Positions 2,166-35,023 of a DNA stretch of 36,424 bases are shown piece by piece (position 1 is the stretch's first letter; every line of letters begins with the position of its first letter). The notes beneath the pieces were generated by a model that did no database searches, had not been told where the DNA came from, and saw only the letters and a list, made by a program, of their open reading frames with translations. This DNA is from a virus (Duplodnaviria > Heunggongvirae > Uroviricota > Caudoviricetes), in IMG/VR virus record IMGVR_UViG_3300046474_000274, positions 1 to 36,424 of that record, one strand, 5' to 3'. The position numbers and the translations under genes were made by a program.

Positions 2166-2194
2166 TTGCAAGTAAGTAAGCACTTACTTACAAT
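2166..2194 (+). promoter_or_regulatory. Sigma70-type promoter with an 18-bp palindromic operator between and overlapping its elements
   Basis: TTGCAA (2166-2171)-N17-TACAAT (2189-2194); TAAGTAAG-CA-CTTACTTA at 2173-2190. Confidence 0.75.
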
Positions 2195-2217
2195 TGGGCT
2201 TCAATTAAGAGGCCCGA

Positions 2218-2925
2218 ATGTCCGTTCAGTCTGAAGCTCAGTCGCTTTCGCCGTCTGCCATCATCTCGCTGTTCACCATCGACGCTTCGCCGATGGGCGG
2301 CCCGCTGATGTATTTCGTGCAGGGCTCCGAGAACGACGGCCCCGTCGTCTTCAACAGCATCAGCTACCAGCCGGTCGACGTTCAGTTCGAGGGCCTCGAA
2401 ACGTCCGGCGCCGGCGCTCTGCCGCAGCCGAAGATCCGCATCTCCAACGTCGACGGCATGGCCCAGGCTCTCGTCTCGACCTATGGCGAACTGCTCGGCT
2501 GCACGCTCTATCGCGTCCGCACCTACAAGCGCTTCCTCGACAACCAGCCCGACGCTGACCCCGAAGCCTTCTACGGCCCCGACATCTTCCGCTTCGAGCG
2601 CAAGACCTCGGAGAACGGCGTCTTCATCGAGTGGGATCTGTCCGCGTCGATCGACCAGGAAGGCAAGACGCTGCCTGGCCGCACGGTCATCCGCAACACC
2701 TGCCTGTGGCGCTACCGCTACTTCAACCTCCAGACCGGCACCTTCGACTACTCGAAGGCGCAGTGCCCTTACACGGGCGGCCGGTATTTCGACATCAACG
2801 ATGCAGAAGTCAGCGACCCGTCCAAGGACATGCCGTCGCGCCGGCTGAACTGCTGCCGCACCCGCTTCGGTCGCGGCAATCCGCTGCCCTTCGGCGGCTT
2901 CCCTGGCGTCCAGAGGATCTCCTGA
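2218..2925 (+). CDS. Minor tail protein L (lambda gpL-like)
   Basis: 235 aa; C-terminal Cys cluster (TCLWRY, QCPYTG, NCCRTRF) and terminal LPFGGFPG motif characteristic of gpL. Confidence 0.9.
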   Translation: MSVQSEAQSLSPSAIISLFTIDASPMGGPLMYFVQGSENDGPVVFNSISYQPVDVQFEGLETSGAGALPQPKIRISNVDGMAQALVSTYGELLGCTLYRVRTYKRFLDNQPDADPEAFYGPDIFRFERKTSENGVFIEWDLSASIDQEGKTLPGRTVIRNTCLWRYRYFNLQTGTFDYSKAQCPYTGGRYFDINDAEVSDPSKDMPSRRLNCCRTRFGRGNPLPFGGFPGVQRIS

Positions 2926-2926
2926 C

Positions 2927-3709
2927 ATGATGAAGTTTGCACTCGCTTTCGAGGATGCGAAGGCGCACGCGCGTCGGGTCTATCCCGAGGAAAGCTGCGG
3001 CCTGATCGTCGCCGGCAAGTATATCGCCTGCGAGAACTTCGCCGACGATCCGGCCACCCACGTCGACGATCCGAATTGCTCCTGCCGGAAGTGCTCGTTC
3101 GAAATCTCGCCTGCTGTCTACGTCAGCCATGGCGATGACATCGATATGGTTGTGCATTCGCATCCGGACGGCCCCTTCTACCCGTCGAAGGCCGACATGG
3201 AATGCCAGGTCCAGACCGGCAAGCCCTGGGCAATCATCACCCTCGACGAGGAACGCGCCGCTGAAAAGCCGGTAATCTGGGGCGGTGACATTCCGGAGCT
3301 GCTCGGCCGTCAGTTCATGCACGGCGTCACCGACTGCTATGCGGTGATCAAGGATGCCTATGCGCTCGGCAAGGTCGAGCTCGAAAAGCAGGGCATTCCC
3401 GGCTGGCCTTACGACCCGATCACGCTGCCTGAATTCCCGCGCAGCGATGCCTGGTGGGAAGGCGCCGAGGATCTCTACATCGATAACTTCGCCAAGGCCG
3501 GCTTCGTGGAGACCACGGACGCGCCGAAGCCCGGCGATGTCTTCCTGATGAAGATCCGCTCCTCGAAGGAGAACCACGGCGGGATCCTCGTCGGTAACGA
3601 CCTCATCGTCCATCACCTGCCGTCGCGCATGTCGCGCCGCGAACCTGCTGGGCTCTGGGGCCGGCAGTCAACGCGCTGGCTTCGCTACAAGGGGAACGCC
3701 GATGCGTAA
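2927..3709 (+). CDS. Tail assembly protein K (JAB/MPN plus NlpC/P60 domains)
   Basis: EESCGLI, VVHSHPDG...PSKAD (JAB) and GVTDCY...NHGGILVG...IVHH (NlpC/P60); lies between L and I. Confidence 0.9.
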   Translation: MMKFALAFEDAKAHARRVYPEESCGLIVAGKYIACENFADDPATHVDDPNCSCRKCSFEISPAVYVSHGDDIDMVVHSHPDGPFYPSKADMECQVQTGKPWAIITLDEERAAEKPVIWGGDIPELLGRQFMHGVTDCYAVIKDAYALGKVELEKQGIPGWPYDPITLPEFPRSDAWWEGAEDLYIDNFAKAGFVETTDAPKPGDVFLMKIRSSKENHGGILVGNDLIVHHLPSRMSRREPAGLWGRQSTRWLRYKGNADA

Positions 3710-4358
3710 GGTCATCCTGCACGGCTCGCTCGGCGACAAGTATGGCAAGGAATTTAGCCTCGACGTTCGCACGGCCGGCGAGGCTGTCCGCGCACTCGCT
3801 GCCAACTTCCCGATGTTCATGAAGGATCTGCGTGAAGGCGCCTGGCATGTCGTCCGCGGCAAGAAGGTCGATAGCGGTCTCGCGCTCGATGAAAACCAGA
3901 TCAGCGGTTTGCGCCTGGGCAAGGGTGACCTGCATATCGCGCCCTTTATTGCCGGCTCCAAGCGCGGCGGGCTGCTCAAGGTCGTTCTCGGCGTCGTGCT
4001 CATCGGCGCAGCCTTCGCGTTCACGGGCGGCGCGCTGGCGGGCGCGATCGGCGCCGGCACTGCAATGGGCTCTCTCGGCATCACCGGCACCCAGGTCGCG
4101 CTCTTTGGCGCAGCCGTGGCCCTTGCCGGCGTCTCCTCGCTGCTGGCGCCCGAAGAGAAGGCCAAGGAAGAGGACGGCTCGCAGTCGTTCACCATGACCG
4201 GGCCTGGGAACACCTCCGACCAGGGCGCTCCGGTCCCTCTCGTCTACGGCGAGGTCATCACGGGCGGCGTGCTCATTTCGGGCGGCATCGACATCGAGCA
4301 GATCGCGGTCACCGGCGACGGTGGTGGATCTGTCGGTGGTGGAGGGAGCAAGAAGTGA
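3702..4358 (+). CDS. Tail assembly protein I (lambda gpI-like)
   Basis: N-terminal ubiquitin-like segment (LHGSLGDKYG...TAGEAVRAL), Gly/Ala-rich hydrophobic middle, C-terminal GAPVPLVYGEV motif. Confidence 0.88.
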   Translation: MRKVILHGSLGDKYGKEFSLDVRTAGEAVRALAANFPMFMKDLREGAWHVVRGKKVDSGLALDENQISGLRLGKGDLHIAPFIAGSKRGGLLKVVLGVVLIGAAFAFTGGALAGAIGAGTAMGSLGITGTQVALFGAAVALAGVSSLLAPEEKAKEEDGSQSFTMTGPGNTSDQGAPVPLVYGEVITGGVLISGGIDIEQIAVTGDGGGSVGGGGSKK

Positions 4359-10558: not shown

Positions 10559-10950
10559 TTTGGTTCGTATTGTATAAGCCTGATGGCTCGATTGCCCAGC
10601 ATGGCAACGCGATCTCTGAAGAGGAGGCGGAAGAGCAGGCTGATCTGCTCGGCCTCTCCATTCTTCCCGTGGAATCTCAGCTTGGAGATGTGCGCGACTG
10701 GTATGTTTCGGCAGGTGTGCTCACGCCTAAGCGGGAAATCGATGCCGAGGACGAATACACGATCGCCGCTGACGGGGCGGCCGAGGTCTCCTTTCCCGTG
10801 CCGGACGGAACCCCGATCATCTTCCAGAAGGCATGGCACCTGTCGGATGGCTCGTTTGAGTTCGCCACGGACACGCCGGGGACTTACGAGGTCAAGATCG
10901 AGACCGGGGCTACGACTTTGAGCAAGAGGGTAATTATCCATGCGGTTTGA
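10555..10950 (+). CDS. Tail fibre-associated hypothetical protein
   Basis: In-frame GTG at 10555 overlaps the gpJ stop (GTGA), preferred over 10531; located directly after gpJ. Confidence 0.6.
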   Translation: MIWFVLYKPDGSIAQHGNAISEEEAEEQADLLGLSILPVESQLGDVRDWYVSAGVLTPKREIDAEDEYTIAADGAAEVSFPVPDGTPIIFQKAWHLSDGSFEFATDTPGTYEVKIETGATTLSKRVIIHAV

Positions 10951-11353: not shown

Positions 11354-11419
11354 ACGACGAATCTGCCGGCTAGGCTCGGCCGATCTTGAGTTTTGGTTGC
11401 CCTTTCCTCCCACATGTAG

Positions 11420-11437
11420 TAAGTAAGAGCTTACTTA
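11420..11437. promoter_or_regulatory. 18-bp palindromic operator ahead of the lysis cassette
   Basis: TAAGTAAG-AG-CTTACTTA; TTGCCC at 11397-11402 lies 17 nt upstream. Confidence 0.75.
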
Positions 11438-11458
11438 CTTATTCGCCGGAGACGTGTC

Positions 11459-11815: not shown

Positions 11816-12033
11816 TGCTGCACCCCGACTGGAAGAAGATCCTGACAAAGGCATGGTCGCAGCGCCTGAACGCGCTCGCCTTCGTGCTCACGGTCCTCGA
11901 GGTGATCTTCGCGGTCTATGGCGCACCCGCATTCATCCCGCTCGGCACGTTCGCGGTCCTGTCCGGCCTGACCACGGCCGGCGCATTCGTGGCTCGCCTC
12001 TACGCCCAGAAGGAATTCAAGGATGCCGATTAA
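11815..12033 (+). CDS. Putative holin (small two-TM protein)
   Basis: 72 aa; WKKILTKAWSQRLNAL...ARLYAQ, two hydrophobic segments; immediately upstream of the endolysin; TGATG overlap. Confidence 0.7.
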   Translation: MLHPDWKKILTKAWSQRLNALAFVLTVLEVIFAVYGAPAFIPLGTFAVLSGLTTAGAFVARLYAQKEFKDAD

Positions 12034-12625
12034 CACGATCGTCGCCACGAAGCGCGGCAAGGCCGCAATCGCTGCGGCCATCATCGCAGCGACCGCAGGT
12101 GGCTGGCATTCCCAGATCGACACCTCGCAGACGGTTCTTCCTCCGGCCGTCATCCTTGCGACCGATGAGCTGATCCTGCCCTGGGAGGGCATGGTCCTGA
12201 AGGCGCATTGGGATCGGTTCGCCAAGATCTACGACATCTGCGCCGGCATCACGCGCATCAACGGCAAGCCCGTCACGGCGAACATGTCGTTTACCAGGTC
12301 GCAGTGCGAAGCCATGACCCGTGAGCAGATCTTCAACGACTACTATCTCCCGCTGGTCAAGCAGGTTCCGGGTTTCGTCAACTTCCCGGTCGGCGTCCAG
12401 GCAGCCATGCTTTCGGGCGCCTATAACTTCGGCGTCTACGGCATGGTTCATTCGAATGCGACCGCGTTCCATCTCAAGGGTGAATACCGCAAGGGCTGCG
12501 AAGCCCAGACCGCCTGGAATAAGGCGGGCGGCGTCAGGGTTCCTGGTCTCGTGAAGCGCCGCGAAATGGGTGATGACCAGCGCAAGGGCGAGGCCGAAAT
12601 CTGCGTGTCGGGGCTGCCCTCCTAA
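12023..12625 (+). CDS. Endolysin, GH24 lysozyme with putative N-terminal SAR domain
   Basis: WEGMVLKAHWD (E-X8-D), ICAGIT, AYNFG, WNKAGG...GLVKRR...E...C; N-terminal KRGK followed by AAIAAAIIAATAGG. Confidence 0.9.
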   Translation: MPINTIVATKRGKAAIAAAIIAATAGGWHSQIDTSQTVLPPAVILATDELILPWEGMVLKAHWDRFAKIYDICAGITRINGKPVTANMSFTRSQCEAMTREQIFNDYYLPLVKQVPGFVNFPVGVQAAMLSGAYNFGVYGMVHSNATAFHLKGEYRKGCEAQTAWNKAGGVRVPGLVKRREMGDDQRKGEAEICVSGLPS

Positions 12626-13255: not shown

Positions 13256-15112
13256 ATGAATGGACGGGAATACATGTCGGCTATTGTGCCTGAAGATCGT
13301 TTCGTCGCAGCCTACAACGACAAGGAAACCTACCCCAATCTCACCGATGTAGCCGTAGCTCTCGGTCTTTCGTATCAGACGGTGCGCAATCGCTCCTCGG
13401 TCCTTCGTGCTCGCAAGCGTGCAGGCGAGGATGTTCCGGCTCTTATCAATCGCGTCATCCAGGCGACCGAGAAGGATCCGGAAGCACCGAAGAACCACGC
13501 CAACGCACGCGCGGATCTGCTGCGTTATGAAATCGACAAGCTGCTGACCAGCTCCCGCTATCCGGTCACCAATCCGGAGGCTGTCGTGGTCGATCCCTAT
13601 ATCACCACCAAGTATGATCGCCGGGCCGGCAAGAAGCAGAACGTCGAGGGCACGCCGCGCACCTGGCTCACCGACACGCTGCTCGCTGAAGGCGTCGAGG
13701 ATCCTCGTGGGCGTGTGTTCATCTTCACGGGAGCCCAGAACGACGCCGAGGTCGATCTGCCCTTTTGGGAGAACCTGCAGGCATATGCGACCTTCCGCGA
13801 AGCCGATATCATCGTGGGTCCGGGCACCTATGAAACGCAGTGGTGGTCGGAGAATAACGCGGCCGTCCGCTCCTATGCCGAGGAGATCGAGGAATACCTC
13901 TGCTTCGGCCAGATGAAGATCGGCGAGAACTTCGTCTTCTGCGGCGAGATGAACATGCTGCCGACGGCCAACCGGCCGATCAGCGATCTCACCACCTACA
14001 CGCAGGGCCGCTGGGGCGTTTTCCCGCATTCGAAGATCCAGCTCAAGTCGGTCCCGTCGCTCGATCCCGCGCGCCAGGCGCACCAGGTCATGACGACCGG
14101 GCTCGTCACCAAGCCGAAGATCATCCCGCGCAAGGCAGGCATCAAGTCGATCTTCCACCATCAGCTCGCCGCTGTCCTCGTCGAGTTCGACCATGACGGC
14201 GATCTCTTCTGCCGGCATCTCGTCGCCGACAAGGACGGCTCCTTCTCGGACCTCGAATTCTTCGTCAAGGATGGCGAGGTCTCGGTTGATGACGAGCAGG
14301 TGGAGCTGGTCGTCATGTTCGACATGCACACCGACAAGGAAGACCGCAAGAATACCGATGCGTTGTTCCGGGCCAAGAACTCGGTCTTCAAGACGCTGAA
14401 GGTCCGGCGCGCGATCGCCCACGACATCTTCGACAATTACCGGCGCAATCATCACAACGTCCACGACAACGCCCATTCCTACGAGGTGGCAGTGCGCGGC
14501 CGCGAGAGCGTCTTCGAGGAGGTTCGTGGCGTCGTCAATATCCTCAAGGAGCTGCAGGCGTCGGTCGCAGTCACGGTCGTCGAGTCCAATCACGATATCG
14601 CCCTGGAACGCTATGTGAAGGAAGGCCGCTACCGCAACGACGGCATCAATATTCGGCTCGGTCTCCAGCTCGAAGACGCCTATCTCGCCTGGCGTGAGGA
14701 GGTGGCTGAATGTCTGGACGCCAACCGGCCGGCGCCATCCTTCTCGCTGCTCGAATATGCCGTCAACATGGCAGCCGACAAGGACGGTGTAGATCTCACC
14801 GATGTCGAGTGGGTTCATGACGGCTATTCCTACGTGATTAACGGCGTAGAGTGCGGCAATCACGGCTTCCGCGGCGCCAATGGTGCACGCGGCACGGTAT
14901 CGGGTTTCGCAGCCCTCGGCCGCAAGATGAACATCGGCGACAAGCATTCGCCCGAGATCATGGATGGCGTCTACGTCTCCGGCGTGGTGAGCCTGCGGCA
15001 GGGCTACAACAAGGGTCCGTCCGGCTGGGCGGTCACTTGCACCTTCCAGTATAACAATGGCAAGCGGACTCTGGTGACGTTCCAGAACGGGAAGTGGCGC
15101 GCGTTTATTTAG
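13256..15112 (+). CDS. Calcineurin-like metallophosphoesterase/nuclease with N-terminal HTH, resembling T5 A1-family proteins
   Basis: DMH, HDIFD, SNHD, NHG and GDKH motifs in phosphoesterase order; N-terminal LTDVAVALGLSYQTVRNR HTH; FIFTGAQN...FWENLQAYA segment recalled as A1-like. Confidence 0.6.
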   Translation: MNGREYMSAIVPEDRFVAAYNDKETYPNLTDVAVALGLSYQTVRNRSSVLRARKRAGEDVPALINRVIQATEKDPEAPKNHANARADLLRYEIDKLLTSSRYPVTNPEAVVVDPYITTKYDRRAGKKQNVEGTPRTWLTDTLLAEGVEDPRGRVFIFTGAQNDAEVDLPFWENLQAYATFREADIIVGPGTYETQWWSENNAAVRSYAEEIEEYLCFGQMKIGENFVFCGEMNMLPTANRPISDLTTYTQGRWGVFPHSKIQLKSVPSLDPARQAHQVMTTGLVTKPKIIPRKAGIKSIFHHQLAAVLVEFDHDGDLFCRHLVADKDGSFSDLEFFVKDGEVSVDDEQVELVVMFDMHTDKEDRKNTDALFRAKNSVFKTLKVRRAIAHDIFDNYRRNHHNVHDNAHSYEVAVRGRESVFEEVRGVVNILKELQASVAVTVVESNHDIALERYVKEGRYRNDGINIRLGLQLEDAYLAWREEVAECLDANRPAPSFSLLEYAVNMAADKDGVDLTDVEWVHDGYSYVINGVECGNHGFRGANGARGTVSGFAALGRKMNIGDKHSPEIMDGVYVSGVVSLRQGYNKGPSGWAVTCTFQYNNGKRTLVTFQNGKWRAFI

Positions 15113-15121: not shown

Positions 15122-15139
15122 TAAGTAAGCACTTACTTA
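15122..15139. promoter_or_regulatory. 18-bp palindromic operator ahead of phoH
   Basis: TAAGTAAG-CA-CTTACTTA; GCTACAT -10-like element at 15154-15160. Confidence 0.75.
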
Positions 15140-16851: not shown

Positions 16852-16869
16852 TAAGTAAGCACTTACTTA
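16852..16869. promoter_or_regulatory. 18-bp palindromic operator ahead of helicase
   Basis: TAAGTAAG-CA-CTTACTTA ending 4 nt before the first ATG. Confidence 0.75.
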
Positions 16870-19337: not shown

Positions 19338-19355
19338 TAAGTAATCGAATACTTA
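19338..19355. promoter_or_regulatory. Core-type operator TAAGTA-N6-TACTTA
   Basis: TAAGTA-ATCGAA-TACTTA, just upstream of a promoter-like motif. Confidence 0.65.
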
Positions 19356-22334: not shown

Positions 22335-23459
22335 TTAGCGGCGCGCAAGATCTTTCGATAGGCGTTGAATCTCGTTTGCTAAATTCAACTGTCCGGCTTT
22401 GATCAAACGGACCATCGCCCTGAAATAGCCGCCCGCGTTCTTGATCGGATCCGATCCTGGCGCGGGCCGCGTTTGCATCTGCACCACGTAAACCAGCGTG
22501 GCCGACGCGCCGAGCGCCCCGATTTCACGGGTCGCCTCCTCCCAGCCGGACGCGGACACCCCAAAAGCGCCCCGCATGCGCGACACGCCCATAATCAGGT
22601 CGCGGTCGCTGCGCACATCGCCTATAAACTCCATCGCATCAGGGCAAGCTCTCGCCAAATCGCCGGCGTCCAGGCTGATGCTCGGCCGTTCCGGCTCCCT
22701 CACATCATCAGAGCCGTTGTTACAAGACTGGTCAGGGGCATATTTGTTGTTGTCTTTGTGACGGCAAGAATTGCCGGCAGAGGCGGCGTAATATCTACCT
22801 TCTGCTTCTTCCCTGATCGAGCGCCAGGCTTCTCGGGCGTCGTCGGCCGATCCCGCTCCAGACCTGCGTGGCGTGACTCTAGCGAGCTCAAGGGCGCGCG
22901 CCGTCAGTTCGGTGATGTCGATGCTCGGGAAAGTCTCTGCAAGCGCCCTGAGAGCCTCCTGCGCCGATCTGCGATGGATGGTGAGCTCGTCAAAGGCTGC
23001 CGCTCGCTCGCGCTCCATATCTTTGATCGCCTGGAGCTGATCGCGGAGCTCCGGCAGGCGCGCAAGGAGAGGGGAGAGGTCGAAGCCATATGCCTTGACG
23101 ATCTGGCCCCGCAGCGATCGCTGCGCGAACCGTTTGCCGTTCGGGCTGTCCTTGGCGCCGATCACACCATCGGCAAGCAGCCGGGCAAGCGCATAGCGAA
23201 CGGATCGCTCTGGAATGCCGGTGCGCTCGACCAGGAATTCGTTCGACGGCCAGACGAGCATCCGGTTTTCGATCAGCTCCCCACCGTAGACGCCGACGAG
23301 CTGGTCGAGGACGAACCTGCAGCTTGACGGTAGTTTCAGCACGCGGGCAGCCGCCCGCGCCGCCTCGTAGAGGACTTGTTTGTCCGCTGTGTCTGGCTCT
23401 TCGGCCGACGGGAGCGTCGGCTTTAGAGCGCGCCAGCCGGACGACTGTGCGCTTCTCAT
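22335..23459 (-). CDS. repC: Plasmid replication initiator RepC (repABC-family type)
   Basis: VWPSNEFL, SVRYALARL, KDSPNGKRF, AYGFDLSPL, IKNAGGYFRAM motifs. Start ATG 23459 with AAAGGGA RBS, preferred over 23501. AT-richer middle near 22730-22800, where oriV lies in characterised repC genes. Confidence 0.92.
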   Translation of the reverse strand: MRSAQSSGWRALKPTLPSAEEPDTADKQVLYEAARAAARVLKLPSSCRFVLDQLVGVYGGELIENRMLVWPSNEFLVERTGIPERSVRYALARLLADGVIGAKDSPNGKRFAQRSLRGQIVKAYGFDLSPLLARLPELRDQLQAIKDMERERAAAFDELTIHRRSAQEALRALAETFPSIDITELTARALELARVTPRRSGAGSADDAREAWRSIREEAEGRYYAASAGNSCRHKDNNKYAPDQSCNNGSDDVREPERPSISLDAGDLARACPDAMEFIGDVRSDRDLIMGVSRMRGAFGVSASGWEEATREIGALGASATLVYVVQMQTRPAPGSDPIKNAGGYFRAMVRLIKAGQLNLANEIQRLSKDLARR

Positions 23460-23508
23460 GGTTATCCCTTTCACAGGGCAACGCTTCGCCGTTCGCCTCA
23501 AATAGGCG

Positions 23509-23537
23509 TTGACAAATCAGCGGTGATTCGGGATAAC
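23509..23537 (+). promoter_or_regulatory. ctRNA promoter antisense to the repC leader
   Basis: TTGACA-N17-GATAAC with a GANTC (GATTC 23525-23529) in the spacer, matching the layout of repABC ctRNA promoters. Confidence 0.75.
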
Positions 23538-23543
23538 CAAAGT

Positions 23544-23624
23544 GCTTGATAGCTCTGGTGTCCCGACGGTCACTATCTAATTTCGAAGGCTCTAGGATTG
23601 GCGTCCTGGAGCCTTCAGCGTTTT
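23544..23624 (+). ncRNA. Counter-transcribed antisense RNA (ctRNA/IncA-like) controlling repC; ends approximate
   Basis: Lies in the repC leader on the opposite strand; 13-bp stem GAAGGCTCTAGGA/TCCTGGAGCCTTC (one G-U pair) at 23585-23616 followed by AGCGTTTT. Confidence 0.75.
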
Positions 23625-23630
23625 AAGCCC

Positions 23631-23828
23631 TTAGTTTCGTTCCTGAATTAACTTGTTAAGGGCAGCCGCAACGGCTTCAGACCGATTGCGGAACTCACCC
23701 GACTTGACCAGTTCGTCCAAACGTGTCGTCAGACGGTTCTCGATCCACAGAAGAACCTGCTTCTCGCCTCGCGCTTCACGCTTGACGCGATATCTCTCAG
23801 ACGCCGTAATGTCGCTTTGGATGCCCAT
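23631..23828 (-). CDS. Ribbon-helix-helix (CopG/Arc/MetJ-like) protein upstream of repC
   Basis: KQVLLWI...LDELVKSGEFRNRSEAVAAAL RHH signature; ATG 23828; same strand as repC. Confidence 0.72.
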   Translation of the reverse strand: MGIQSDITASERYRVKREARGEKQVLLWIENRLTTRLDELVKSGEFRNRSEAVAAALNKLIQERN

Positions 23829-23939
23829 GATCAAAAATCCGACTCATTCAAATCACTACATCGCTAGTGATCGCCCGATTCTGCTGATTTGTGAAGTCCC
23901 CAATATCCACAACAGCCATAGGTAGACGCCGAGGAACGT

Positions 23940-23967
23940 TTCTTGCATAAGATGCATTATGGAACAG
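23940..23967. other. dif-like XerC/XerD recombination site
   Basis: TTCTTGCATAA-GATGCA-TTATGGAACAG: 11-6-11 layout sharing GCATAA-N6-TTATG with E. coli dif (GGTGCGCATAA-TGTATA-TTATGTTAAAT). Confidence 0.65.
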
Positions 23968-24009: not shown

Positions 24010-24027
24010 TAAGTATGTATTGACTTA
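24010..24027. promoter_or_regulatory. Core-type operator (one mismatch) overlapping a TTGACT -35 ahead of the XRE gene
   Basis: TAAGTA-TGTATT-GACTTA; TTGACT at 24020-24025. Confidence 0.6.
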
Positions 24028-24056
24028 TTTTTTCGTTATGGTCTAAGGGCGACGCA

Positions 24057-24082
24057 GCGATCCCTTTCAAGTCGCGCTATAA
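24057..24082 (+). promoter_or_regulatory. Promoter-like motif, GCGATCCC-N11-GCTATAA class
   Basis: Exact GCGATCCC-N11-GCTATAA. Confidence 0.6.
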
Positions 24083-24145
24083 GTCATGTTGTCGAAAGCG
24101 ATACGTCCAGGCGCTACGAACCGCATAATCAGGGAACTATTTATT

Positions 24146-24538
24146 ATGGCAACGCAAACAGGAACACCGACGCGGTTTTCCAACTACATATTTAAGAAAC
24201 TCATGGAGTCGCCGAAGTCTCAGAAGGAGATCGCGGACGCCGTGGGCTACAAAAACCAAAACATGATCACCATGCTCAAGCAGGGTCATGTAAAGCTCGC
24301 ACTCGACAGAGTGCCGGCAATGGCTAAGGCTCTCAACATAGATCCGCTCGATCTGTTCAAGATCGCGCTGACCCAATTCTATGACGACGCTGCCTGCCGG
24401 ATGCTGACAGACATCATAGAGGCTGGCAATTCCGCCCAAGAGCGGAAGATACTCCAGATAGTGCGCGACGCTTCCGGCGATGCCACGCCCCTCCTGACAC
24501 CAGAGCGCGAGAAGAAGCTGGCAGAGATATTCGGCTAA
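24146..24538 (+). CDS. XRE/Cro-CI-type HTH transcriptional regulator (candidate repressor)
   Basis: SQKEIADAVGYKNQNMITMLKQG...LDRVPAMAKALNIDP HTH; divergent from the RHH-repC unit; ATG 24146 preferred over 24086. Confidence 0.8.
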   Translation: MATQTGTPTRFSNYIFKKLMESPKSQKEIADAVGYKNQNMITMLKQGHVKLALDRVPAMAKALNIDPLDLFKIALTQFYDDAACRMLTDIIEAGNSAQERKILQIVRDASGDATPLLTPEREKKLAEIFG

Positions 24539-24569
24539 TTCGCTCGCGACCCAATGCGATTCGGCATTG

Positions 24570-24600
24570 AGCCTGCTATATCAGTGGCAGGCTTTTTCTT
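24570..24600 (+). terminator. Intrinsic terminator after the XRE gene (overlaps a GCTATAT promoter-like motif)
   Basis: AGCCTGC / GCAGGCT stem followed by TTTTCTT; GCGATTCG-N11-GCTATAT at 24556-24581 overlaps it. Confidence 0.6.
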
Positions 24601-24612: not shown

Positions 24613-24630
24613 TAAGTAATTGCATACTTA
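24613..24630. promoter_or_regulatory. Core-type operator
   Basis: TAAGTA-ATTGCA-TACTTA. Confidence 0.7.
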
Positions 24631-24653: not shown

Positions 24654-24884
24654 ATGACTGAGACTTCTCCCTTCCTGCGCAATCTGTCGATGTCGAATGA
24701 GGAAGCCTATGAGCTCTCCTTCGAGCTTGAGGATAAGCAGGTAGAAGAACTGAATGGCTGCACGATCTATTCAGGCAAGCATCCCGAGCACGGTAATATT
24801 CATATCGTGATCCCTGCGATGGGCGACAGCGCAAAGGCACTTCTGCCCTTTGATCTGAAGCCTGTCGTTCTCCGTTCATTTTGA
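24654..24884 (+). CDS. Small acidic hypothetical protein (76 aa)
   Basis: ATG 24654 preceded by AGAGGA; bracketed by two identical operators. Confidence 0.55.
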   Translation: MTETSPFLRNLSMSNEEAYELSFELEDKQVEELNGCTIYSGKHPEHGNIHIVIPAMGDSAKALLPFDLKPVVLRSF

Positions 24885-24893: not shown

Positions 24894-24911
24894 TAAGTAA
24901 TTGCATACTTA
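24894..24911. promoter_or_regulatory. Core-type operator ahead of the cobT-like gene
   Basis: TAAGTA-ATTGCA-TACTTA, identical to 24613-24630; TTGAGC-N17-CATACT spans it. Confidence 0.7.
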
Positions 24912-27331: not shown

Positions 27332-27365
27332 AAAAAAAAGTAAGCGGGGACTTATTTCCCCGCTT
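27331..27365 (-). terminator. Minus-strand intrinsic terminator between the cobT- and cobS-like genes
   Basis: On the - strand: AAGCGGGGA-AATAAG-TCCCCGCTT-AC-TTTTTTTTT. Confidence 0.65.
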
Positions 27366-27382
27366 GCGTCCCACGTCAGAAA

Positions 27383-27400
27383 TAAGTAAGAGCTTACTTA
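27383..27400. promoter_or_regulatory. 18-bp palindromic operator ahead of the cobS-like gene
   Basis: TAAGTAAG-AG-CTTACTTA; TTGCGT at 27364-27369. Confidence 0.75.
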
Positions 27401-27440
27401 TAGCGCAACGCGAAAGCGCTTCATCACAAGAGGGAATGAC

Positions 27441-28757
27441 ATGAGCCAGGCTATTGAAGCTGGCGCAGCGGCAACTGCGTCGGACGGGAAGATTCTGTGC
27501 CACATCGACAATGTGCGCGTTCATACAATCCAGGGTCACATCAAGAAGACCCATCCCGATTGGACCATCGAGCGGTATCAAGCCGAGTTTCCCGGCGAGC
27601 CGCTTTTCTCTGAGACCGCAAAGGCGTTGATGGCGAAAGCCGAGGCTGAAAAGGCCCAGGCAGCCGCTGTAGCGCCCGGCGCCGATGCCGCTGATATTCA
27701 GGCGCAGATGGTTGCGGCAGCGACCGGTGTCGCCGCGCCGAAGATCACCGTCAAGCAGGCGTTCTTCCACGAGCTGTTCGAACTCGGCAACGCGCCGGCC
27801 GCTCTGTCGGCCAAGGGTCAGCCGATCCCGATCAAGGTTCTCGAAGGCCACGACGCCGGCTCGGCCGACTATCTGCCGGACCTCGATAAGTCCTACGTCT
27901 TCAACATCGACCTGTTGAAGAAGGTCATCATCGGCTTTGAGCTGAACATGCCGACCTATCTCTGGGGCTTTCACGGCACCGGCAAGACGACGGTCCTGCA
28001 GCAGGCGGCAGCCCGCACGCGCCGTCCGTTCATTCGTGTTCAGCATACGATCAACATGCAGGAGTCCGACGTGCTCGGACAGTGGACGGTTCGCTCCAAG
28101 GCTGTCGAAGTCGAGGTGCTCGATCCGACCGGCGCCAAGGTCAAGGTCATTCAGCAGCAGTCCGTCACCGAGTTCCAGCTCGGGCCGCTTCCGATGGCAA
28201 TGATCAACGGCTGGGTCTATTGCGCCGACGAATACGACTTCGCGATGCCCTCCGTCACCGCGGTCTATCAGCCGGTTCTCGAAGGCCAGGCGTTGCTGAT
28301 CAAGGACGCTCCTCCGCACTTCCGCAAGATCGTGCCGCATCCGAACTTCCGCTTCGTCGCGACCGGAAACACCAACGGTGTCGGCGATGAAACCGGCCTC
28401 TACCAGGGCACGCTGGTTCAGAACGCAGCCAACTATTCGCGCTTCGCGATCACCGAAGAAGTCGAATACATGGAAGCGAAGATCGAGACCGCGATCCTGC
28501 AGTCGAAGACCGGCATCGATGCTGCATCGGCTTCCAAGATCGTCAAGATGGCGAACGAAGTCCGCAAGCTGTTCCGTGATGGCAAGATCACCATGACGGT
28601 CTCGCCGCGCGAGCTGATCCGCTGCGCGTCTCTTGGTATCGCCTACGGCGGCAATTGGACGCTCGGCATGGAGCTCGCCTTCGCCAACCGTCTGTCGCGC
28701 GTCGATAAGAAGGTCGTGCAGGAATACATGCAGCGCGTATTCGGAGGCGCAGCATGA
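27441..28757 (+). CDS. cobS: CobS/MoxR-like AAA+ ATPase with N-terminal zinc-finger-like extension
   Basis: GFHGTGKT Walker A, CADEYD Walker B, HPNFRFVATGNT, NAANYSRF, SPRELI. The symbol denotes family only. Confidence 0.85.
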   Translation: MSQAIEAGAAATASDGKILCHIDNVRVHTIQGHIKKTHPDWTIERYQAEFPGEPLFSETAKALMAKAEAEKAQAAAVAPGADAADIQAQMVAAATGVAAPKITVKQAFFHELFELGNAPAALSAKGQPIPIKVLEGHDAGSADYLPDLDKSYVFNIDLLKKVIIGFELNMPTYLWGFHGTGKTTVLQQAAARTRRPFIRVQHTINMQESDVLGQWTVRSKAVEVEVLDPTGAKVKVIQQQSVTEFQLGPLPMAMINGWVYCADEYDFAMPSVTAVYQPVLEGQALLIKDAPPHFRKIVPHPNFRFVATGNTNGVGDETGLYQGTLVQNAANYSRFAITEEVEYMEAKIETAILQSKTGIDAASASKIVKMANEVRKLFRDGKITMTVSPRELIRCASLGIAYGGNWTLGMELAFANRLSRVDKKVVQEYMQRVFGGAA

Positions 28758-29398
28758 TCAAGCGCGATCCGAAGCTCGACCGCCCGCAGGTCAAGGCATT
28801 CGCGTATAAGGTTCTCAAGCGCGTTCACGCGCTTGGGGCCAAGTCGCAGACCCTGGATGATATCGAGGGTGAACTGTGGATCGCCTGGTGCCTGGCCTGC
28901 GACCGTTTCGACCCGACGGCCGGCGCCGCCTTCAAGACGTTCCTCTACCGCGGCATGCGCCTGCATATCAACCGCTGGATCGAGAAGACGTTCGAACGGT
29001 TCCATGACGAGACCGTCGCCGCGTCCCTCGAGGCGAGCTACGGCTCTGAGGAAGCATCTGGCGCAAACGGCTCGACGCTCGGCGAAGTCATCGCTGACAC
29101 GGCCGAACGCCAGGACGAGACCTTCCAGAAGGAGAATTGCTTCGCCTACGCCCTCACCCGCGTCTCTGACCGGGCAAAGCTGTTCCTGACGTTCCTGAAG
29201 GACAATCCTCCGGAGCTGATGGTCCGCATGAGGGATCTCGAGGCGAAAGCCGCACACGCCAAGGAGCTCGGCGTTTCCTACGCCATGCCCCACCGTATCA
29301 CCTCGGCCATGATCTTCGACTTCATGGGCGCCTCCCGCGTCGAACGTAAGCAGATTATGGACGAAGTCACCCAGATCGGGCGGCTGATTTCGAACTAG
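28754..29398 (+). CDS. Sigma70-family-like factor (regions 2, 3.2 and 4-like)
   Basis: DDIEGELWIAWCLACDRFDPTAGAAFKTF resembles region 2 (DLIQEG...AVEKFDP.RG.KFSTY); SLEASYG...STLGEVIAD resembles region 3.2; IFDFMGASRVERKQI resembles region 4.2. Confidence 0.68.
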   Translation: MIKRDPKLDRPQVKAFAYKVLKRVHALGAKSQTLDDIEGELWIAWCLACDRFDPTAGAAFKTFLYRGMRLHINRWIEKTFERFHDETVAASLEASYGSEEASGANGSTLGEVIADTAERQDETFQKENCFAYALTRVSDRAKLFLTFLKDNPPELMVRMRDLEAKAAHAKELGVSYAMPHRITSAMIFDFMGASRVERKQIMDEVTQIGRLISN

Positions 29399-29405
29399 GA
29401 CGATC

Positions 29406-29954
29406 ATGACGACCATTCCCCATCTGGCGCCGGGCTGCTTTGGTTCAGCCCTCGCATTCAAAAAGGACGACACCGTCTGCCGCGGATGCAAGTTCTTGAG
29501 CTTGTGTGAGCCCGCTCACCTCGAGGCTCAGAAGGTCTTGCGCGAGCGCTACGGCATCAAGACGACCCAGGAAGTGCTTGCCGATCAGAAGCAGGCGCGT
29601 GAAGCCGAAAAGGCCGCCCGTGAGGCGAACCGCAACGAAGCAGTCTTGGTGCTGCCGAAGAAGACCCAGGAACTGATCGATAGGCTCGATCGTGGAAATT
29701 ACGATGTGAAGGGCAAGTTCGCCCGCGGTGAGAACCCGTTCGGACAGTCCATGCGCTTCATGCAGATCGTCGGCCATCTGCTCCTCAATCTCAAGAACGT
29801 CCGGCTCGACCGGGCGCTGATCGCAACCGCCTTCGTCAAGAAGCTCGAATGGCAGCAGGGCACCGCAGACGCGCATGCCCGCATGGCAATTCAGGCGCTC
29901 GAACACGTCGGCGCAATCATCAACAACGACGGCGTTATCGCCCTCAAGGGGTAA
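29406..29954 (+). CDS. Hypothetical protein with N-terminal four-Cys cluster
   Basis: PGCFG...VCRGCKFLSLC; sits between the sigma-like gene and dnaE. Confidence 0.65.
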   Translation: MTTIPHLAPGCFGSALAFKKDDTVCRGCKFLSLCEPAHLEAQKVLRERYGIKTTQEVLADQKQAREAEKAAREANRNEAVLVLPKKTQELIDRLDRGNYDVKGKFARGENPFGQSMRFMQIVGHLLLNLKNVRLDRALIATAFVKKLEWQQGTADAHARMAIQALEHVGAIINNDGVIALKG

Positions 29955-29958
29955 TTCG

Positions 29959-32900: not shown

Positions 32901-33324
32901 GCCTGGCAACGAAGAGGACACGGGCGGCGTCATGGGCTTCTCGATGTCGAACAACGCTGTGATCGAGGCTGTGGAAGCGGCATCGCTCGACCGTTCGAAT
33001 ATCTATTGGACGGCCCTGATCAAGCGCCCGAAGCGCGGCAAGCAGGTTACGCCCGACGAGATTGCCACCTATTGGCCGTATCTGGAGCGGGAGATCGAAC
33101 TGCTCAAGCCGCCCGTTATCGTGCTTCTCGGCTCGCAGACGGTTCGCCACTTTATCCCGGACTTCAAGGGCAAGGCATCCGACGCGGCCGGCAAGGTGAT
33201 CTACTCCAAGAAGTATGACGCCAACGTCGTGATCGGCTTTAGCCCCGGTGAGATTTATCACGATCCGGACAAGCAGCAGAACATGAACGAGGTGTTCGCC
33301 TCAGTCGCGGATTGCTTATCATGA
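29959..33324 (+). CDS. dnaE: DNA polymerase III alpha subunit (DnaE) with C-terminal UDG-like domain
   Basis: GPGRGSVGGSL, LLFERFINPER, PDADLDF, KMDVLGL, ALYRPGP, YQEQVM, YGFNKSHS. Start ATG 29959 preferred over 29875. Confidence 0.95.
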   Translation: MHSILAARTDFSVGESILTTKVLIKNAVDAGAKAIAMTDTMSVTGMIDFTNKAKAEGLKPVIGCRLRLSDNPTWRPGDGEKKKDMPRSYFLTVYALKEAGIKAIFRLLTLANSDDRFYYVAKLGFEDLYAELKGLAGDDLAIVLGDAHSVLEHPNVDDIVLELNDQVEMIYAPLVPIDTPYYGRLNELALRQISLGAVKPIVVRPAFYGQGEADTQEIMTAISENHKVTDPWFRSRHNRDMHVMGNAELVGEMKKAVAHLVKRGNDPSATALKFKEGLFNTAMLVAAVEYEWKKAAVSLPIMAPDEFAAVVEECKKGWKLRFAAPIFGHQPDAKELVEVYKPRLAYELETLKRLNFSGYFLLVQDVVQFAKNSGIMVGPGRGSVGGSLVAYLMGITECDPIRFGLLFERFINPERIDLPDADLDFMSERRHEIFEYLTKKYGEKRVAGVNNYGTLGSASAIRDVGRVTLIPEKDYSVSKFVPKLHGQNVPLPEARKQVADIDDFANHYPGHWPIMERLEGTIRNFSQHAGGVIVGGVDIVDRAVVERRKDGNVVCWDKRIVEDQGLVKMDVLGLNTLDLMTLTLDYIRENTGKRLDLNRIPLDDEKVLANFAKANTTAIFQFESGGMRRLLKELGSTGVITFEDITAATALYRPGPMESGMMDSFYLRKQGHEEIEYDHPLMEPVLEETFGVIVYQEQVMKISQVIAGYSGAAADKLRKIMGKKLPEEMKKERKKFCDGCVATIACTEDWAGALFDKIEGFAGYGFNKSHSVEYTLISYQAMYLKTYHPAEFYAAALTVQKEEKLTGIIRDAKSLGIDVSMPDINISTDRFEMATPVRLVMPLQRIKGLSEKATTAILEARKSGLFADKNDFLARVEKRVCNKRVQEALDLVGAFARIEPGQKAANDPSRIKDQIELLPGLVAGHVPIEHELEKDKDTKEALGELVDEYRAAHGPKATMTDGYPVKPFFGRDADFMIISDAPGNEEDTGGVMGFSMSNNAVIEAVEAASLDRSNIYWTALIKRPKRGKQVTPDEIATYWPYLEREIELLKPPVIVLLGSQTVRHFIPDFKGKASDAAGKVIYSKKYDANVVIGFSPGEIYHDPDKQQNMNEVFASVADCLS

Positions 33325-33932
33325 TGCTCCGGCCGGTATCCGCTATCCGGCTGGTATCAAACGAGCCGGTAAAGAAGACCTTCGGCCAGAGGCTCCGGGA
33401 CTATTTCTTCCCGGAGCAGGCCGAAACTCCCGAAACTGAACCGCCCAAGATGGTTTTGAAACCGACGGCTGATCCCGCGCCATTCGTGCCGTTCCCGACG
33501 ACTTACGGCTCCGTCAGGGTGCCAGGCACGATTACGACCTGGGACGGCGAGATCATGACCTCGACCATGATGAAGCCCGACCAGCCCTGCGCCTGGTGGT
33601 ATTGCGACGATCACCGCGTTCCGAACTGCAACTTCGGACACAAGGTTCTCGACAAGCACGAAGTCACGGATTGGAATGACATGACCGAAGACGAGCGCGA
33701 AGAAGCGATCAATGAGTGGGAGAAGCTCATGGGTTTGAGTTCCATCGGCATCACCCCTCCCACGCCCGAGGGTCCGAATGAGCTCGCGGCTGCGCGTATG
33801 CACCAGCGGGCGGTTGCGAACAATCTCGCCCGCGATATGGAAGCTCACAAGAAGAAGTTGGAACGCGAGCTGGCAGAAGCTGAGGAGCGGGAGAGGCTCT
33901 ACGAAGGCAACAGCACTTTCGGCGCTTTCTAA
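33321..33932 (+). CDS. Hypothetical protein
   Basis: ATGA overlap with the dnaE stop; C-terminal coiled coil ending YEGNSTFGAF. Confidence 0.6.
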   Translation: MMLRPVSAIRLVSNEPVKKTFGQRLRDYFFPEQAETPETEPPKMVLKPTADPAPFVPFPTTYGSVRVPGTITTWDGEIMTSTMMKPDQPCAWWYCDDHRVPNCNFGHKVLDKHEVTDWNDMTEDEREEAINEWEKLMGLSSIGITPPTPEGPNELAAARMHQRAVANNLARDMEAHKKKLERELAEAEERERLYEGNSTFGAF

Positions 33933-33936
33933 ATGC

Positions 33937-33962
33937 GCTCTCCGATCGCGAAATCGCTATAA
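33937..33962 (+). promoter_or_regulatory. Promoter-like motif, GCGATCCC-N11-GCTATAA class
   Basis: GCTCTCCG-N11-GCTATAA. Confidence 0.5.
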
Positions 33963-33988
33963 TTTCAGTATCAACAAGGAACCACAAC

Positions 33989-34564
33989 ATGACGACTCCC
34001 ACGACGGCCGACGCCGCGAAGGAGCAGACCTCCTATCAGGTCCGCGACTTCATCGATGCTGCACAGTTGAAGCGCGACCTCGCCTTCTCCCCGAACAATC
34101 TGACCGACGCCATGATCTCCCAGGCGTCCATGTTCTCATATTATGGCGTTCTCGCCGCTGACGCCGCAAAGCAGGTCGACGTGGTGAAGATGCTCCTGGA
34201 GAACACCGAGGCTGCTGTCTCGCAGATCGTCCGTAACGAAGCGGCAACGGCCGGCGAGAAGATCACCGAAGGCGCGATCGCGACCCGCATCGCCCGTCAT
34301 CCGCGCGTCGTCGGGATGAAGAAGGCGCTGAACGATGCCAAGCGCGTCGAGGCGATCGGCAAGACCGCTGTTGAGTCCTTCCGGCACCGGCGCGACATGC
34401 TGGTGCAGCTCGGCCTGATCTCCCGCGAGGAGATGAAGGGTGAGTTGTCCATCCGCGAAAAGTCGGCACGCGAAGACGCGGTCGAGCAGTCCAAGCAGAG
34501 CACGCTCGATCGTCTTGCGCGCCGCAATGGCGTTCAGGCAGCGGACGAAAATTCCGTAAATTAA
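33989..34564 (+). CDS. Helical protein, possibly a UvsY-like recombination mediator
   Basis: KITEGAIATRI...HP...ALNDAKR...AVESFRHRRDMLVQLG resembles T4 UvsY-like proteins from memory; near the gp32-like SSB. Confidence 0.5.
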   Translation: MTTPTTADAAKEQTSYQVRDFIDAAQLKRDLAFSPNNLTDAMISQASMFSYYGVLAADAAKQVDVVKMLLENTEAAVSQIVRNEAATAGEKITEGAIATRIARHPRVVGMKKALNDAKRVEAIGKTAVESFRHRRDMLVQLGLISREEMKGELSIREKSAREDAVEQSKQSTLDRLARRNGVQAADENSVN

Positions 34565-34566
34565 GT

Positions 34567-34612
34567 GCAATCCCTCGTCATTTACGCTATAAAGTAAGTA
34601 AGCACTTACTTA
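34567..34612 (+). promoter_or_regulatory. Promoter-like motif followed immediately by an 18-bp operator
   Basis: GCAATCCC-N11-GCTATAA (34567-34592), then TAAGTAAG-CA-CTTACTTA (34595-34612). Confidence 0.75.
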
Positions 34613-34641
34613 GTGTGACGCCCTTCAAAAGGAAGATCCTC

Positions 34642-34905
34642 ATGGACGCATTCATTGCATATCTCCGTAAGTTCCTTGGCCTGGAACTGACCATCGATCG
34701 TGTCGTCGCCCGTCAGAGCAAGGTCGTTCGCGACCTCGACAAGCTCGAAACGTTGCACGTCACCAAGGCTGAAAAGGCGGAGAGCAAGGCAGCCAAGGCC
34801 GCAGCCAAGGCCGAGGAAGCTCGCCTCGAAGCTGCTGACGCAGCCGAACTGTCGAACAACTGGAAGAATTCTGGCCTGGTCCGTCCGTCCCGCAAGGCGG
34901 CCTGA
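34642..34905 (+). CDS. Small Ala/Lys-rich hypothetical protein (87 aa)
   Basis: ATG 34642 with AAAGGAA upstream; coiled-coil-like AESKAAKAAAKAEEA. Confidence 0.6.
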   Translation: MDAFIAYLRKFLGLELTIDRVVARQSKVVRDLDKLETLHVTKAEKAESKAAKAAAKAEEARLEAADAAELSNNWKNSGLVRPSRKAA

Positions 34906-34920
34906 CCACTCGGGACTTGA

Positions 34921-34946
34921 GCGATCCCATCGACACATCGCTATAA
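34921..34946 (+). promoter_or_regulatory. Promoter-like motif, GCGATCCC-N11-GCTATAA class, followed by an operator half-site
   Basis: Exact GCGATCCC-N11-GCTATAA; TAAGTAAG at 34944-34951. Confidence 0.6.
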
Positions 34947-35023
34947 GTAAGTAGCTAGATAGCTGGATAGCTATCAAGGCAAGTCGAAAGCACAAAGCAC
35001 AAAAGCACGAAGGAACTAAGCAT

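Follow-up and report, generated by a model that had tools for sequence, protein, structure and literature searches.

A dispersed 18-bp palindrome as the probable operator of an XRE-family regulator in a putative Rhizobium phage-plasmid

Introduction

Why does a stretch of viral DNA with 60% G+C carry the same 18-bp palindrome in one gap between genes after another, and what reads it? The question is raised by bases 1-36424 (hereafter the window) of the 120,956-bp IMG/VR record IMGVR_UViG_3300046474_000274 (Caudoviricetes), whose nearest DNA is that of the Rhizobium phages V1VFA-S, RHph_X66 and B1VFA (84.6% identity), RHEph10 and its kin being more distant. A reading of the window from its letters alone (the sequence-only reading) had proposed that one repressor, acting as C1 does in phage P1, silences the whole lytic program through many copies of TAAGTA-N6-TACTTA. 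We find it reasonably probable that the palindrome is the operator of a single element-encoded regulator, most likely a dimer of the XRE-family helix-turn-helix (HTH) protein encoded at 24146-24538 (hereafter XRE). Its binding, its dimeric state, the sign of its action and its route of induction we infer from the sites, their positions and conservation, the plasmid lifestyle of the relatives, and the covariation of protein with operator.

Copies of the palindrome

With at most one mismatch allowed, TAAGTA-N6-TACTTA occurs 10 times in the window, against 0.00 expected from 100 dinucleotide-preserving shuffles. The copies are those that the sequence-only reading had listed (Table 1): six perfect 8-2-8 palindromes of the form TAAGTAAG-NN-CTTACTTA (2173, 11420, 15122, 16852, 27383 and 34595), three with a perfect 6+6 core (19338, 24613 and 24894), and one with a single core mismatch (24010). 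The element at 34944 is, as described, a true half-site, consisting of TAAGTAAG only. The supposed degenerate copy at 27337 fared less well: it overlaps a terminator-like GC hairpin and is here at best a decayed site, probably not working as an operator in this genome; more distant relatives have a proper palindrome at the same position. Over the whole genome we count 37 sites, 13 of them perfect 8-2-8 palindromes, or on average one per ~3.3 kb. The intergenic placement claimed for the window extends to 35 of these 37, on a crude gene call that assigns 77% of the genome to coding sequence, the remaining two coinciding with the end of a gene and with a gene start that is doubtful.

The motif belongs to the element and not to its hosts, as the proposal had implied. 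Eighty Rhizobium genomes (~400 Mb) hold 3 core matches, equal to a reversed-pattern control, compared with a site density of ~230 per Mb in the phage. A search of wider bacterial sequence (185,579 species, 596 Gb) gave at least 120 matches, which occur as single copies per genome and at about the level expected by chance (~139).

Sites at their promoters

The sites overlap core promoter elements, as the sequence-only reading had noticed, and they do so in several registers: in the spacer, over the -10 and start site, and just after a phage-type -10. In the spacer register (2173, 106275 and 110048), the site fills the 17-bp spacer of promoters of the form TTG(C/A)AA-17-TA(c/t)(a/g)AT. The promoter at 2166-2194 was also found independently by a consensus promoter scan, and it is conserved together with its site in RHph_X66 and in pRlX6, a plasmid of R. 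beringeri TP6; that scan otherwise gave few matches, not above shuffles, and the remaining promoters rest on repeated motif context. A -10 of sequence TATAGT or TATTGT extends into the site's first base at 99616, 109078 and 116282. Fourteen further sites begin 1-9 nt (mostly 2) past the -10 of a phage promoter of consensus GC(G)N(T/C)CCC-N11-GCTA(T/A)AA(G), thereby covering its predicted start site, and are followed within ~13-16 nt by a ribosome-binding site and start codon. This phage-specific promoter class comprises more than 20 copies (window 16012, 19384, 24076, 33956, 34586 and 34940; genome 38889-74065, and 97759 on the minus strand), of which ~14 are then followed by the palindrome. 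Its -10 resembles the alphaproteobacterial CTATAT, its upstream box is unlike TTGACA, and its likely reader would be the phage sigma factor encoded downstream of site 27383. Finally, three sites (15122, 19338 and 101051) lie 2-9 nt past a stop codon, and no sigma-70-type promoter could be assigned with confidence around 11420, 15122, 27383 or 101051; the phage-type promoter that follows site 19338 serves the operon of the WGR protein and ligase. Because the register over core promoter elements varies, whereas an activator site would hold a fixed upstream position, the palindrome has the character of a repressor operator.

What property of the palindrome is under selection? The consensus is TAAGTAA(G/T)-NN-(C/A)TTACTTA, in which positions 1-7 are invariant in all 35 sites compared. 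The center dinucleotide is free but rich in pyrimidine-purine steps (CA/TG in 20 of 35, TA in 4), and the inner pair 8/11 is complementary in just 20 of the 35. As an RNA hairpin, the palindrome would be worth -3.1 kcal/mol. Given the invariant arms, the uncompensated changes at pair 8/11 and the weak hairpin, selection acts on the sequence of two half-sites and not on structure, and the palindrome has the features of a symmetric operator whose half-sites lie about one helical turn apart. The notion that it works as a nucleic-acid structure instead, as a hairpin at the 5′ end of the mRNA, as a terminator or a site of processing, or as a cruciform within the promoter, draws on the 14 phage-type promoters at which the site would form the first ~18 nt of the transcript, with the start codon ~13-16 nt on. 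We regard this as very improbable, since the arms show no compensatory changes, no T-run follows, and at least three sites lie in promoter spacers that are not transcribed, the last of which rules out a purely RNA-level role.

Relatives that live as plasmids

The window matches five circular plasmids of 115-119 kb from sequenced Sinorhizobium, Rhizobium, Shinella, Methylobacterium and Pararhizobium at 75-80% nucleotide identity. Among its relatives, pLM21S1 of Sinorhizobium sp. LM21 (117.5 kb) has been described as a plasmid-like prophage that lacks an integrase, has a RepC replicon and has 83 genes in common with RHEph10 (PMC4447125). It is listed among known phage-plasmids, and RHEph10 has been placed near the Acinetobacter group (PMC7969092). 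Near-core copies of the palindrome number 41 in pLM21S1, 35 in pRlX6 and 23 in the Shinella plasmid; the family thus lives as plasmids and keeps the motif while doing so. On sequence grounds, the element itself belongs with the phage-plasmids of the RHEph10/pLM21S1 branch of SSU5-like elements, having the features of that branch: a siphovirus genome of ~100-120 kb, a plasmid replicon, partition genes, dnaE, cobS and cobT, and the gene order XRE, small open reading frame (ORF), cobT. In pRlX6 (NZ_CP140813), many genes, among them the tape measure, dnaB, repC and cobT genes, are annotated in pieces and the 35 operator sites are still there; the fragments reflect either sequencing error or a decaying phage-plasmid.

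The sites are conserved as sequence. When the regions upstream of orthologous genes are aligned (3 to 10 relatives), the palindrome arms, promoter hexamers and Shine-Dalgarno sequences stand out as conserved islands, while the palindrome's center and the flanks drift, and exact core matches number 27 in RHph_X66 and 27 in V1VFA-S. No TAAGTA-type motif was found in RHEph10-type genomes. In these phages, a different 8-2-8 palindrome, TCAGTCAA-TA-TTGACTGA, or a degenerate form of it takes the equivalent intergenic places, namely those that precede dnaB, cobT, cobS and ssb and the one that follows XRE, and therefore operator and reader have co-diverged.

XRE as the candidate binder

Which protein, then, would read the palindrome? 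The Pfam match of XRE to HTH_3 has an E of 8e-5 and 23 bits, which just equals the cut-off (23.5 bits in a six-frame search of the genome), and its profile matches the XRE-type repressor Rco (8bny; E 1e-4). It is the only clear HTH_3 match in the six-frame search, a weak second one falling in the gene that precedes terminase. No further DNA-binding regulator emerged when 40 proteins were compared with Pfam, and six-frame genome searches with HTH_19, HTH_17 and RHH_1 returned nothing, results that leave room for a binder of an unrecognized family. The AlphaFold2 model of XRE shows a five-helix Cro/CI domain followed by three C-terminal helices (pLDDT ~88-90 over residues 10-80), for which the best Foldseek matches are C.BclI, C.AhdI, the N-terminal domain of lambda cI, P22 c2 and 434 Cro (probability 1.0, E ~1e-2). 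A two-copy complex prediction scored 0.29 (mark 0.42) and carries no weight either way. XRE has no S24 peptidase domain, and therefore its release from the operators would probably need an antirepressor.

XRE also appears to have an operator of its own. The copy that the sequence-only reading had placed over the -35 of the XRE gene is present in weakened form at 24010: its right arm, TTGACTTA, contains a candidate -35 (TTGACT, 24020-24025), followed after a 16-nt spacer by TCTAAG (24042-24047), hexamers that we assigned by eye. This could be a host-type, self-repressed XRE promoter. The TTGACTTA right arm is kept at this position in all relatives, including those of the RHEph10 type (8 relatives plus pLM21S1 and pRlX6).

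Three independent lines connect protein and palindrome, the first being their covariation. We compared 16 elements at the alignment column G-[YFW]-x-[N/Q/R]-x-N, the variable position of which is the first residue of the recognition helix. Asn accompanies the half-site TA(A/G)GTAAG, in a group that includes pHCM2, pMT1, a Klebsiella plasmid and E. coli LF82. Arg accompanies a TCAG-type operator, TCAGTCAG-NN-CTGACTGA, with 16 sites in 45 kb of Methylobacterium pAMS5a and 7 sites in 20 kb of an A. baumannii plasmid, and Gln accompanies the palindrome of the RHEph10 group. In the XRE tree, the two Arg/TCAG cases sit in separate major clades, one alphaproteobacterial and the other gammaproteobacterial (split support 97/96), so this pairing arose twice. 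Chemically, it makes sense for A to be read by Asn and for the G of a C:G pair to be read by Arg.

The range of the protein is wide. XRE homologues occur in 837 plasmids, nearly all of them non-mobilizable and ~100-115 kb in size, from Klebsiella, E. coli, Enterobacter, Yersinia (pMT1), Salmonella (pHCM2) and Acinetobacter. These plasmids retain the gene order XRE, small ORF, cobT, cobS, dnaE, the first three of which keep their order from the Rhizobium to the Salmonella elements. In E. coli LF82, synteny and sequence identify the XRE orthologue as CYRAN_45 of the phage-plasmid Cyrano (pairwise E 3e-15). Its authors give CYRAN_45 as the putative master repressor, which in transcriptomes of lysogens stands 10-fold above the background expression of the prophage, and report that Cyrano is induced 39-fold by ciprofloxacin (PMC9928086).

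Chromosomal copies of the motif, few as they are, also keep company with this protein family. For two of the three Rhizobium chromosomal palindromes, the neighbors on either side are XRE-family paralogues transcribed divergently from the gap that holds the palindrome (hmmsearch E 2e-14 and 1e-5), and a third Rhizobium genome carries the same module of divergent XRE genes and palindrome; the corresponding count of XRE-family neighbors at ~117 chance palindromes in other bacteria is 0. In the three genomes with the module (L269, at G001 C12:1198430-1201447; L270, in G063; and L296, in G157), the paralogues (~140 and ~124 aa) stand on either side of a TAAGTAAG-NN-CTTACTTA that is perfect or nearly so, within an AT-rich island. 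A divergent XRE pair of this kind is present in Rhizobium sp. RU33A. Near ~25 strong chromosomal XRE homologues in Rhizobiaceae (E 1e-27 to 1e-37), we found no shared palindrome. Might a Rhizobium transcription factor recognize the sites? Beyond single copies in three host chromosomes, nothing specific favors such a factor, and we find it hardly credible: the number of sites in host genomes equals the control, those that exist adjoin XRE-family paralogues, and the operator type follows the element and not the host, as RHEph10 and RHph_X66 both infect Rhizobium and differ in their operators.

A different protein of the element could be the binder, such as the RHH protein encoded before repC, a ParG-like small protein encoded after parA, or an unrecognized regulator, in which case the palindrome would be a dispersed centromere and silencing site modeled on the N15 SopB sites or on omega of pSM19035. 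A perfect site lies on the promoter of the parA operon (97734), each arm consists of a 4-bp box repeated in tandem (TAAG TAAG), which recalls RHH box arrays, and many small proteins of the element have no family match. A symmetric site of 18-21 bp also suits an RHH tetramer such as Arc. These points are outweighed, in our judgment, and the idea is quite unlikely. The RHH beta-strand diverges in one relative (L255) that has the same operator type, and the RHH gene has a palindrome of its own; the ParG-like protein is 54-58% identical among phages with identical operators, compared with 79% for XRE; 37 promoter sites far exceed the needs of a centromere; and the pairing of XRE with operator persists in enterobacterial and Acinetobacter relatives whose replicons and partition genes are different. 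The N15-style dispersed centromere, which the sequence-only reading had offered as its alternative, finds no support here, whereas XRE, its first choice, stands as the best candidate on the sequence evidence of the HTH_3 match, the covariation, the chromosomal modules and the orthologue CYRAN_45. The palindrome of the RHH gene, TGCAT-AAG-ATGCA, lies upstream of the RHH-repC operon at window 23945-23957 and is a candidate operator for the RHH protein.

A proposed circuit and its difficulties

How might the system work? The element would persist as a plasmid through its repC replicon, and in the plasmid state XRE would occupy ~37 operators, placed in the -35/-10 spacer of sigma-70-type promoters, over a -10 and start site, or 2 nt past a phage-type -10. 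RNA polymerase would thereby be excluded from the tail, lysis, replication, nucleotide-metabolism and sigma-factor operons. The weakened operator over its own -35 would make XRE autoregulated, and the phage-type promoters would be locked twice, because the phage sigma-factor gene itself sits behind operator 27383. Release would come through an antirepressor. The conserved 76-aa ORF that lies between two operators may be speculated to encode a Cro- or antirepressor-like partner.

Alternatively, the same protein and sites could serve mainly to time the lytic cycle, in the manner of a phi29 p4-like or P1 Lpa-like switch and not as a lysogeny repressor. Once infection has begun, the regulator would then be produced, close the phage-type promoters of the early and middle phases from +1, and act positively or neutrally at structural promoters. 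Such a role would suit the phage-type promoter of the XRE gene (24057-24083), the location of the site mostly at +1 for replication and metabolism operons and in the spacer (center about -20) at three structural operons, a gene content typical of virulent phages, and the isolation of RHEph10-type relatives as plaque formers. We nevertheless hold it to be unlikely. The spacer-type promoters already possess a good -35 and an optimal 17-bp spacer, so that no activator is needed, and at other structural promoters the site covers the -10 and the transcription start, a position suited to repression. Plasmid-resident relatives, moreover, retain 23 to 41 sites, and the orthologue is expressed in E. 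coli lysogens whose remaining genes are near background.

Repression by XRE in the plasmid state meets difficulties of its own, which keep our preference for it well short of certainty. The gene set of the record (rIIA/rIIB, RNR, its own replisome and tRNAs) resembles that of a virulent phage, and the record is a viral contig with a repC replicon, the plasmid state being seen in relatives. The phage-type promoter before XRE has no operator, and expression of XRE may be partly lytic. A plain symmetric dimer fails to explain why the left arm is better conserved than the right, and sites 15122, 19338, 101051 and 27383 have no recognizable promoter around them. The covariation rests on one alignment column with three states, and the recognition helices of the chromosomal XRE paralogues differ from that of the phage protein. 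The perfect operator at 97734, finally, is odd for a parA-like operon whose genes are needed in the plasmid state, and it makes silencing of the lytic program alone, as originally proposed, too simple a description.

Comparison with known systems

The proposed parallel with P1 C1 stands by analogy of function and fails as homology. P1 is a plasmid prophage in which one repressor acts at 22 dispersed operators with a 17-bp consensus (PMC8546580). Here, too, one repressor of a putative plasmid prophage would act on ~20-40 operators genome-wide, and the P1-type feature of tens of dispersed, promoter-overlapping operators is present (37 sites). In both, operators are found at the promoters of operons for replication, late regulators and accessory functions, autoregulation of the repressor gene holds in P1 and would hold here, and the repressor has no self-cleaving domain, so that induction would proceed via an antirepressor (Coi and Ant in P1). 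In contrast, the P1 operator is asymmetric and its sequence (ATTGCTCTAATAAATTT; PMC8546580) is unrelated to the perfect 8-2-8 palindrome found here, whose candidate binder is an HTH_3 protein; C1 is not of the XRE, Cro/CI-type HTH kind and hence not homologous, although no search for C1 homologues was made. Further, operators here lie at the structural promoters themselves, and the circuit would include a phage sigma factor and the promoter class attributed to it.

With Cyrano and the group of Salmonella phage SSU5, the likeness extends to descent. The regulator is homologous (36% identity over the HTH), the gene order around it is shared, these elements, like pLM21S1 and RHEph10, are plasmid prophages, and the operators are of the type TA(A/G)GTAAG-NN-CTTAC(C/T)TA, of which Cyrano and pHCM2 have 12 near-core copies apiece. 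The enteric elements differ in that their XRE gene is divergent from the cobT-dnaE operon and lies beside an integrase-like gene, and in that their replicon is IncFIB and not repC. The operator network of SSU5-type phage-plasmids is not described in the literature we searched, which names at most a putative repressor.

Cluster A mycobacteriophages (L5 gp71 type) likewise have ~30 repressor sites spread genome-wide in short intergenic gaps (PMC9283540; PMC6550527), with site sequence and repressor co-diverging into immunity groups, and the sites that follow stop codons in our element could also block read-through. Their stoperators, however, are asymmetric sequences of 13-14 bp, oriented with transcription, bound by a monomer and active mainly on elongation, in phages that integrate into the chromosome. 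No such orientation was found here: the center dinucleotide has no fixed direction on the plus strand, where nearly all genes lie.

As for the fold, XRE shares the five-helix domain that serves DNA binding in the 434, P22 and lambda Cro/CI proteins and in the controller C proteins of restriction-modification systems (2b5a, 1y7y, 3jxb, 2cro, 1lmb), whose operators, like the palindrome here, are symmetric, with half-site centers ~10 bp apart and a flexible, uncontacted center. By our own alignment, Asn37 of XRE corresponds to the first recognition-helix residue of 434 repressor, which we take to be Gln28. Those systems use two or three clustered operators, compared with ~37 dispersed ones here, and the C-terminal three-helix part of XRE, which lacks the S24 peptidase domain, has no clear structural match. 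The resemblance to N15, ParG of TP228 and omega of pSM19035 lies in palindromes scattered over promoter regions of a plasmid prophage (here a putative one), with one at the promoter of the par operon. A ParB-family protein binds the sites of N15, which number about four. Our element has 37, its partition-linked small protein is poorly conserved among phages with the same operator, and the covariation points to XRE.

Gene order and other features of the element

Gene assignments in the window were guided by the annotation of RHph_X66. Almost all genes lie on the plus strand, in the order tape measure end, tail genes M/L/K/I/J, lysis cassette, A1-like protein, phoH; then dnaB, primase, WGR protein, ligase, and repC with a small RHH gene (minus strand); and finally XRE, small ORF, cobT-like, cobS-like, sigma factor, dnaE and ssb. 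Table 1 collects the features discussed.

Table 1. Putative operators, promoters and genes of the window considered in the text
Feature	Position	Strand	Remarks
Operator, perfect 8-2-8	2173-2190		Fills 17-bp spacer of promoter TTGCAA-17-TACAAT (2166-2194), before tail genes L/K/I/J
Operator, perfect	11420-11437		21 nt before first gene of lysis cassette
Lysozyme of lysis cassette	12023-12625
Operator, perfect	15122-15139		9 nt past stop of gene 13274-15112; 62 nt before phoH
Operator, perfect	16852-16869		16 nt before dnaB-like helicase/primase; GCTATAAT -10 ~30 nt upstream
Operator, core-perfect	19338-19355		5 nt past primase stop; upstream of phage-type promoter (GCTTCCC...GCTATAAC)
repC	22335-23501	-	Plasmid replicon with RHH gene; transcription directed away from XRE
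Small RHH gene, upstream of repC	23631-23834	-	Part of plasmid replicon
Weakened operator	24010-24027		Divergent RHH-repC / XRE control region; right arm TTGACTTA
XRE-family HTH protein, 130 aa, candidate master repressor	24146-24538	+	Pfam HTH_3; Asn37 is first residue of recognition helix
Terminator-like hairpin with T-run	24569-24594	+	Ends XRE transcription unit
Operator (TAAGTAATTGCATACTTA)	24613-24630		Before small conserved ORF 24654-24884
Conserved 76-aa ORF between two operators	24654-24884	+	No family match
Operator, variant identical to 24613	24894-24911		20 nt before cobT-like gene
Decayed palindrome fused to terminator-like hairpin (27342-27365)	27337-27365
Operator, perfect	27383-27400		40 nt before cobS-like / sigma factor / dnaE operon
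Phage sigma factor (Sigma70_r2)	28754-29398	+	Downstream of operator 27383
Phage-type ("class II") promoter GCAATCCC-N11-GCTATAAA	34567-34593	+	Ends 2 nt before operator 34595
Operator, perfect	34595-34612		Covers predicted start site of promoter 34567-34593
Half-site TAAGTAAG	34944-34951		0-1 nt after class II -10, before ssb; then TAGCTA/GATAGC array

Two further sequence elements stand out. Between operator 27383 and the start of cobS lies TAGCGCAACGCGAAAGCGCT (window 27401-27420; inverted repeat AGCGC...GCGCT), kept in 10 of 10 aligned relatives, which may be a structure of the 5′ untranslated region or another site of protein binding. Apart from the palindrome, clusters of short TAGCTA/GATAGC-type boxes form a second family of repeats, at window 34948-34975, where the cluster sits right on the promoter of ssb, past the half-site, and at genome positions ~70520, ~88384, ~93143 and ~94290; these boxes may be sites of a partition or RHH protein. 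The record has two ParB-N proteins, both encoded beside terminase.

The repC and RHH cassette (22390-23896) shares 81-87% DNA identity with cassettes on 250-318-kb plasmids of Rhizobium leguminosarum and R. beringeri, and this identity suggests that the replicon has recently been exchanged between phage-plasmids and large symbiotic-type plasmids. A 127-bp direct terminal repeat (genome 1-127 and 120830-120956) looks like the assembler k-mer overlap of a circular or permuted genome, not a T5-like repeat. We considered, and dropped, a virulent T5-like phage on the strength of the A1-like protein, the terminal repeat and rIIA/B, given that the relatives are resident plasmids and the repeat is of the assembler-overlap type. 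Elsewhere in the genome, a 210-aa protein (94316-94948) has an Acb2/Tad1 hairpin domain (Pfam E 1e-9) and is likely a sponge for cyclic-nucleotide defense signals, and a 1205-aa ORF (84759-88376) has no Pfam match and no counterpart at the same position in RHph_X66.

Implications

We found no published description of this regulon in the literature searched. The kind of system is known; its implementation, its spread across the SSU5 supergroup and the residue-to-base code are not described there, and the closest functional parallels would be P1 C1 and the cluster A stoperators (PMC9283540), both with asymmetric sites and unrelated proteins. We entertain, with considerable doubt, a broader idea, namely that the XRE/operator pair is a portable immunity code across the SSU5-related supergroup, from Rhizobium to Salmonella, Yersinia, Klebsiella and Acinetobacter. 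One recognition-helix residue (Asn, Arg or Gln) would then set the operator type (TAAG versus TCAG) and hence hetero-immunity, the operator type would have switched convergently at least two times, and the chromosomal two-XRE module would plug into the network, where it would serve as decoy or immunity island or else sense the phage-plasmid's repressor in the manner of a satellite.

SSU5-type phage-plasmids are common, including in clinically important enterobacteria and agriculturally important rhizobia, and their silencing in the plasmid state is essentially undescribed. The present analysis provides a testable circuit, consisting of an 18-bp operator, a map of the ~37 promoters it would control, a 130-aa candidate repressor and a specificity prediction that concerns a single residue. 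For annotation, the motif marks the starts of transcription units in a family of mostly hypothetical genes. Most likely, judging from sequence, the operator docks the phage's own small HTH protein, which would keep nearly all phage genes off in the plasmid state. Genome-wide silencing by one repressor, familiar from P1 and cluster A, may have evolved a further time, here through an ordinary Cro/CI-type protein in combination with a phage sigma factor and a class of promoters private to the phage.

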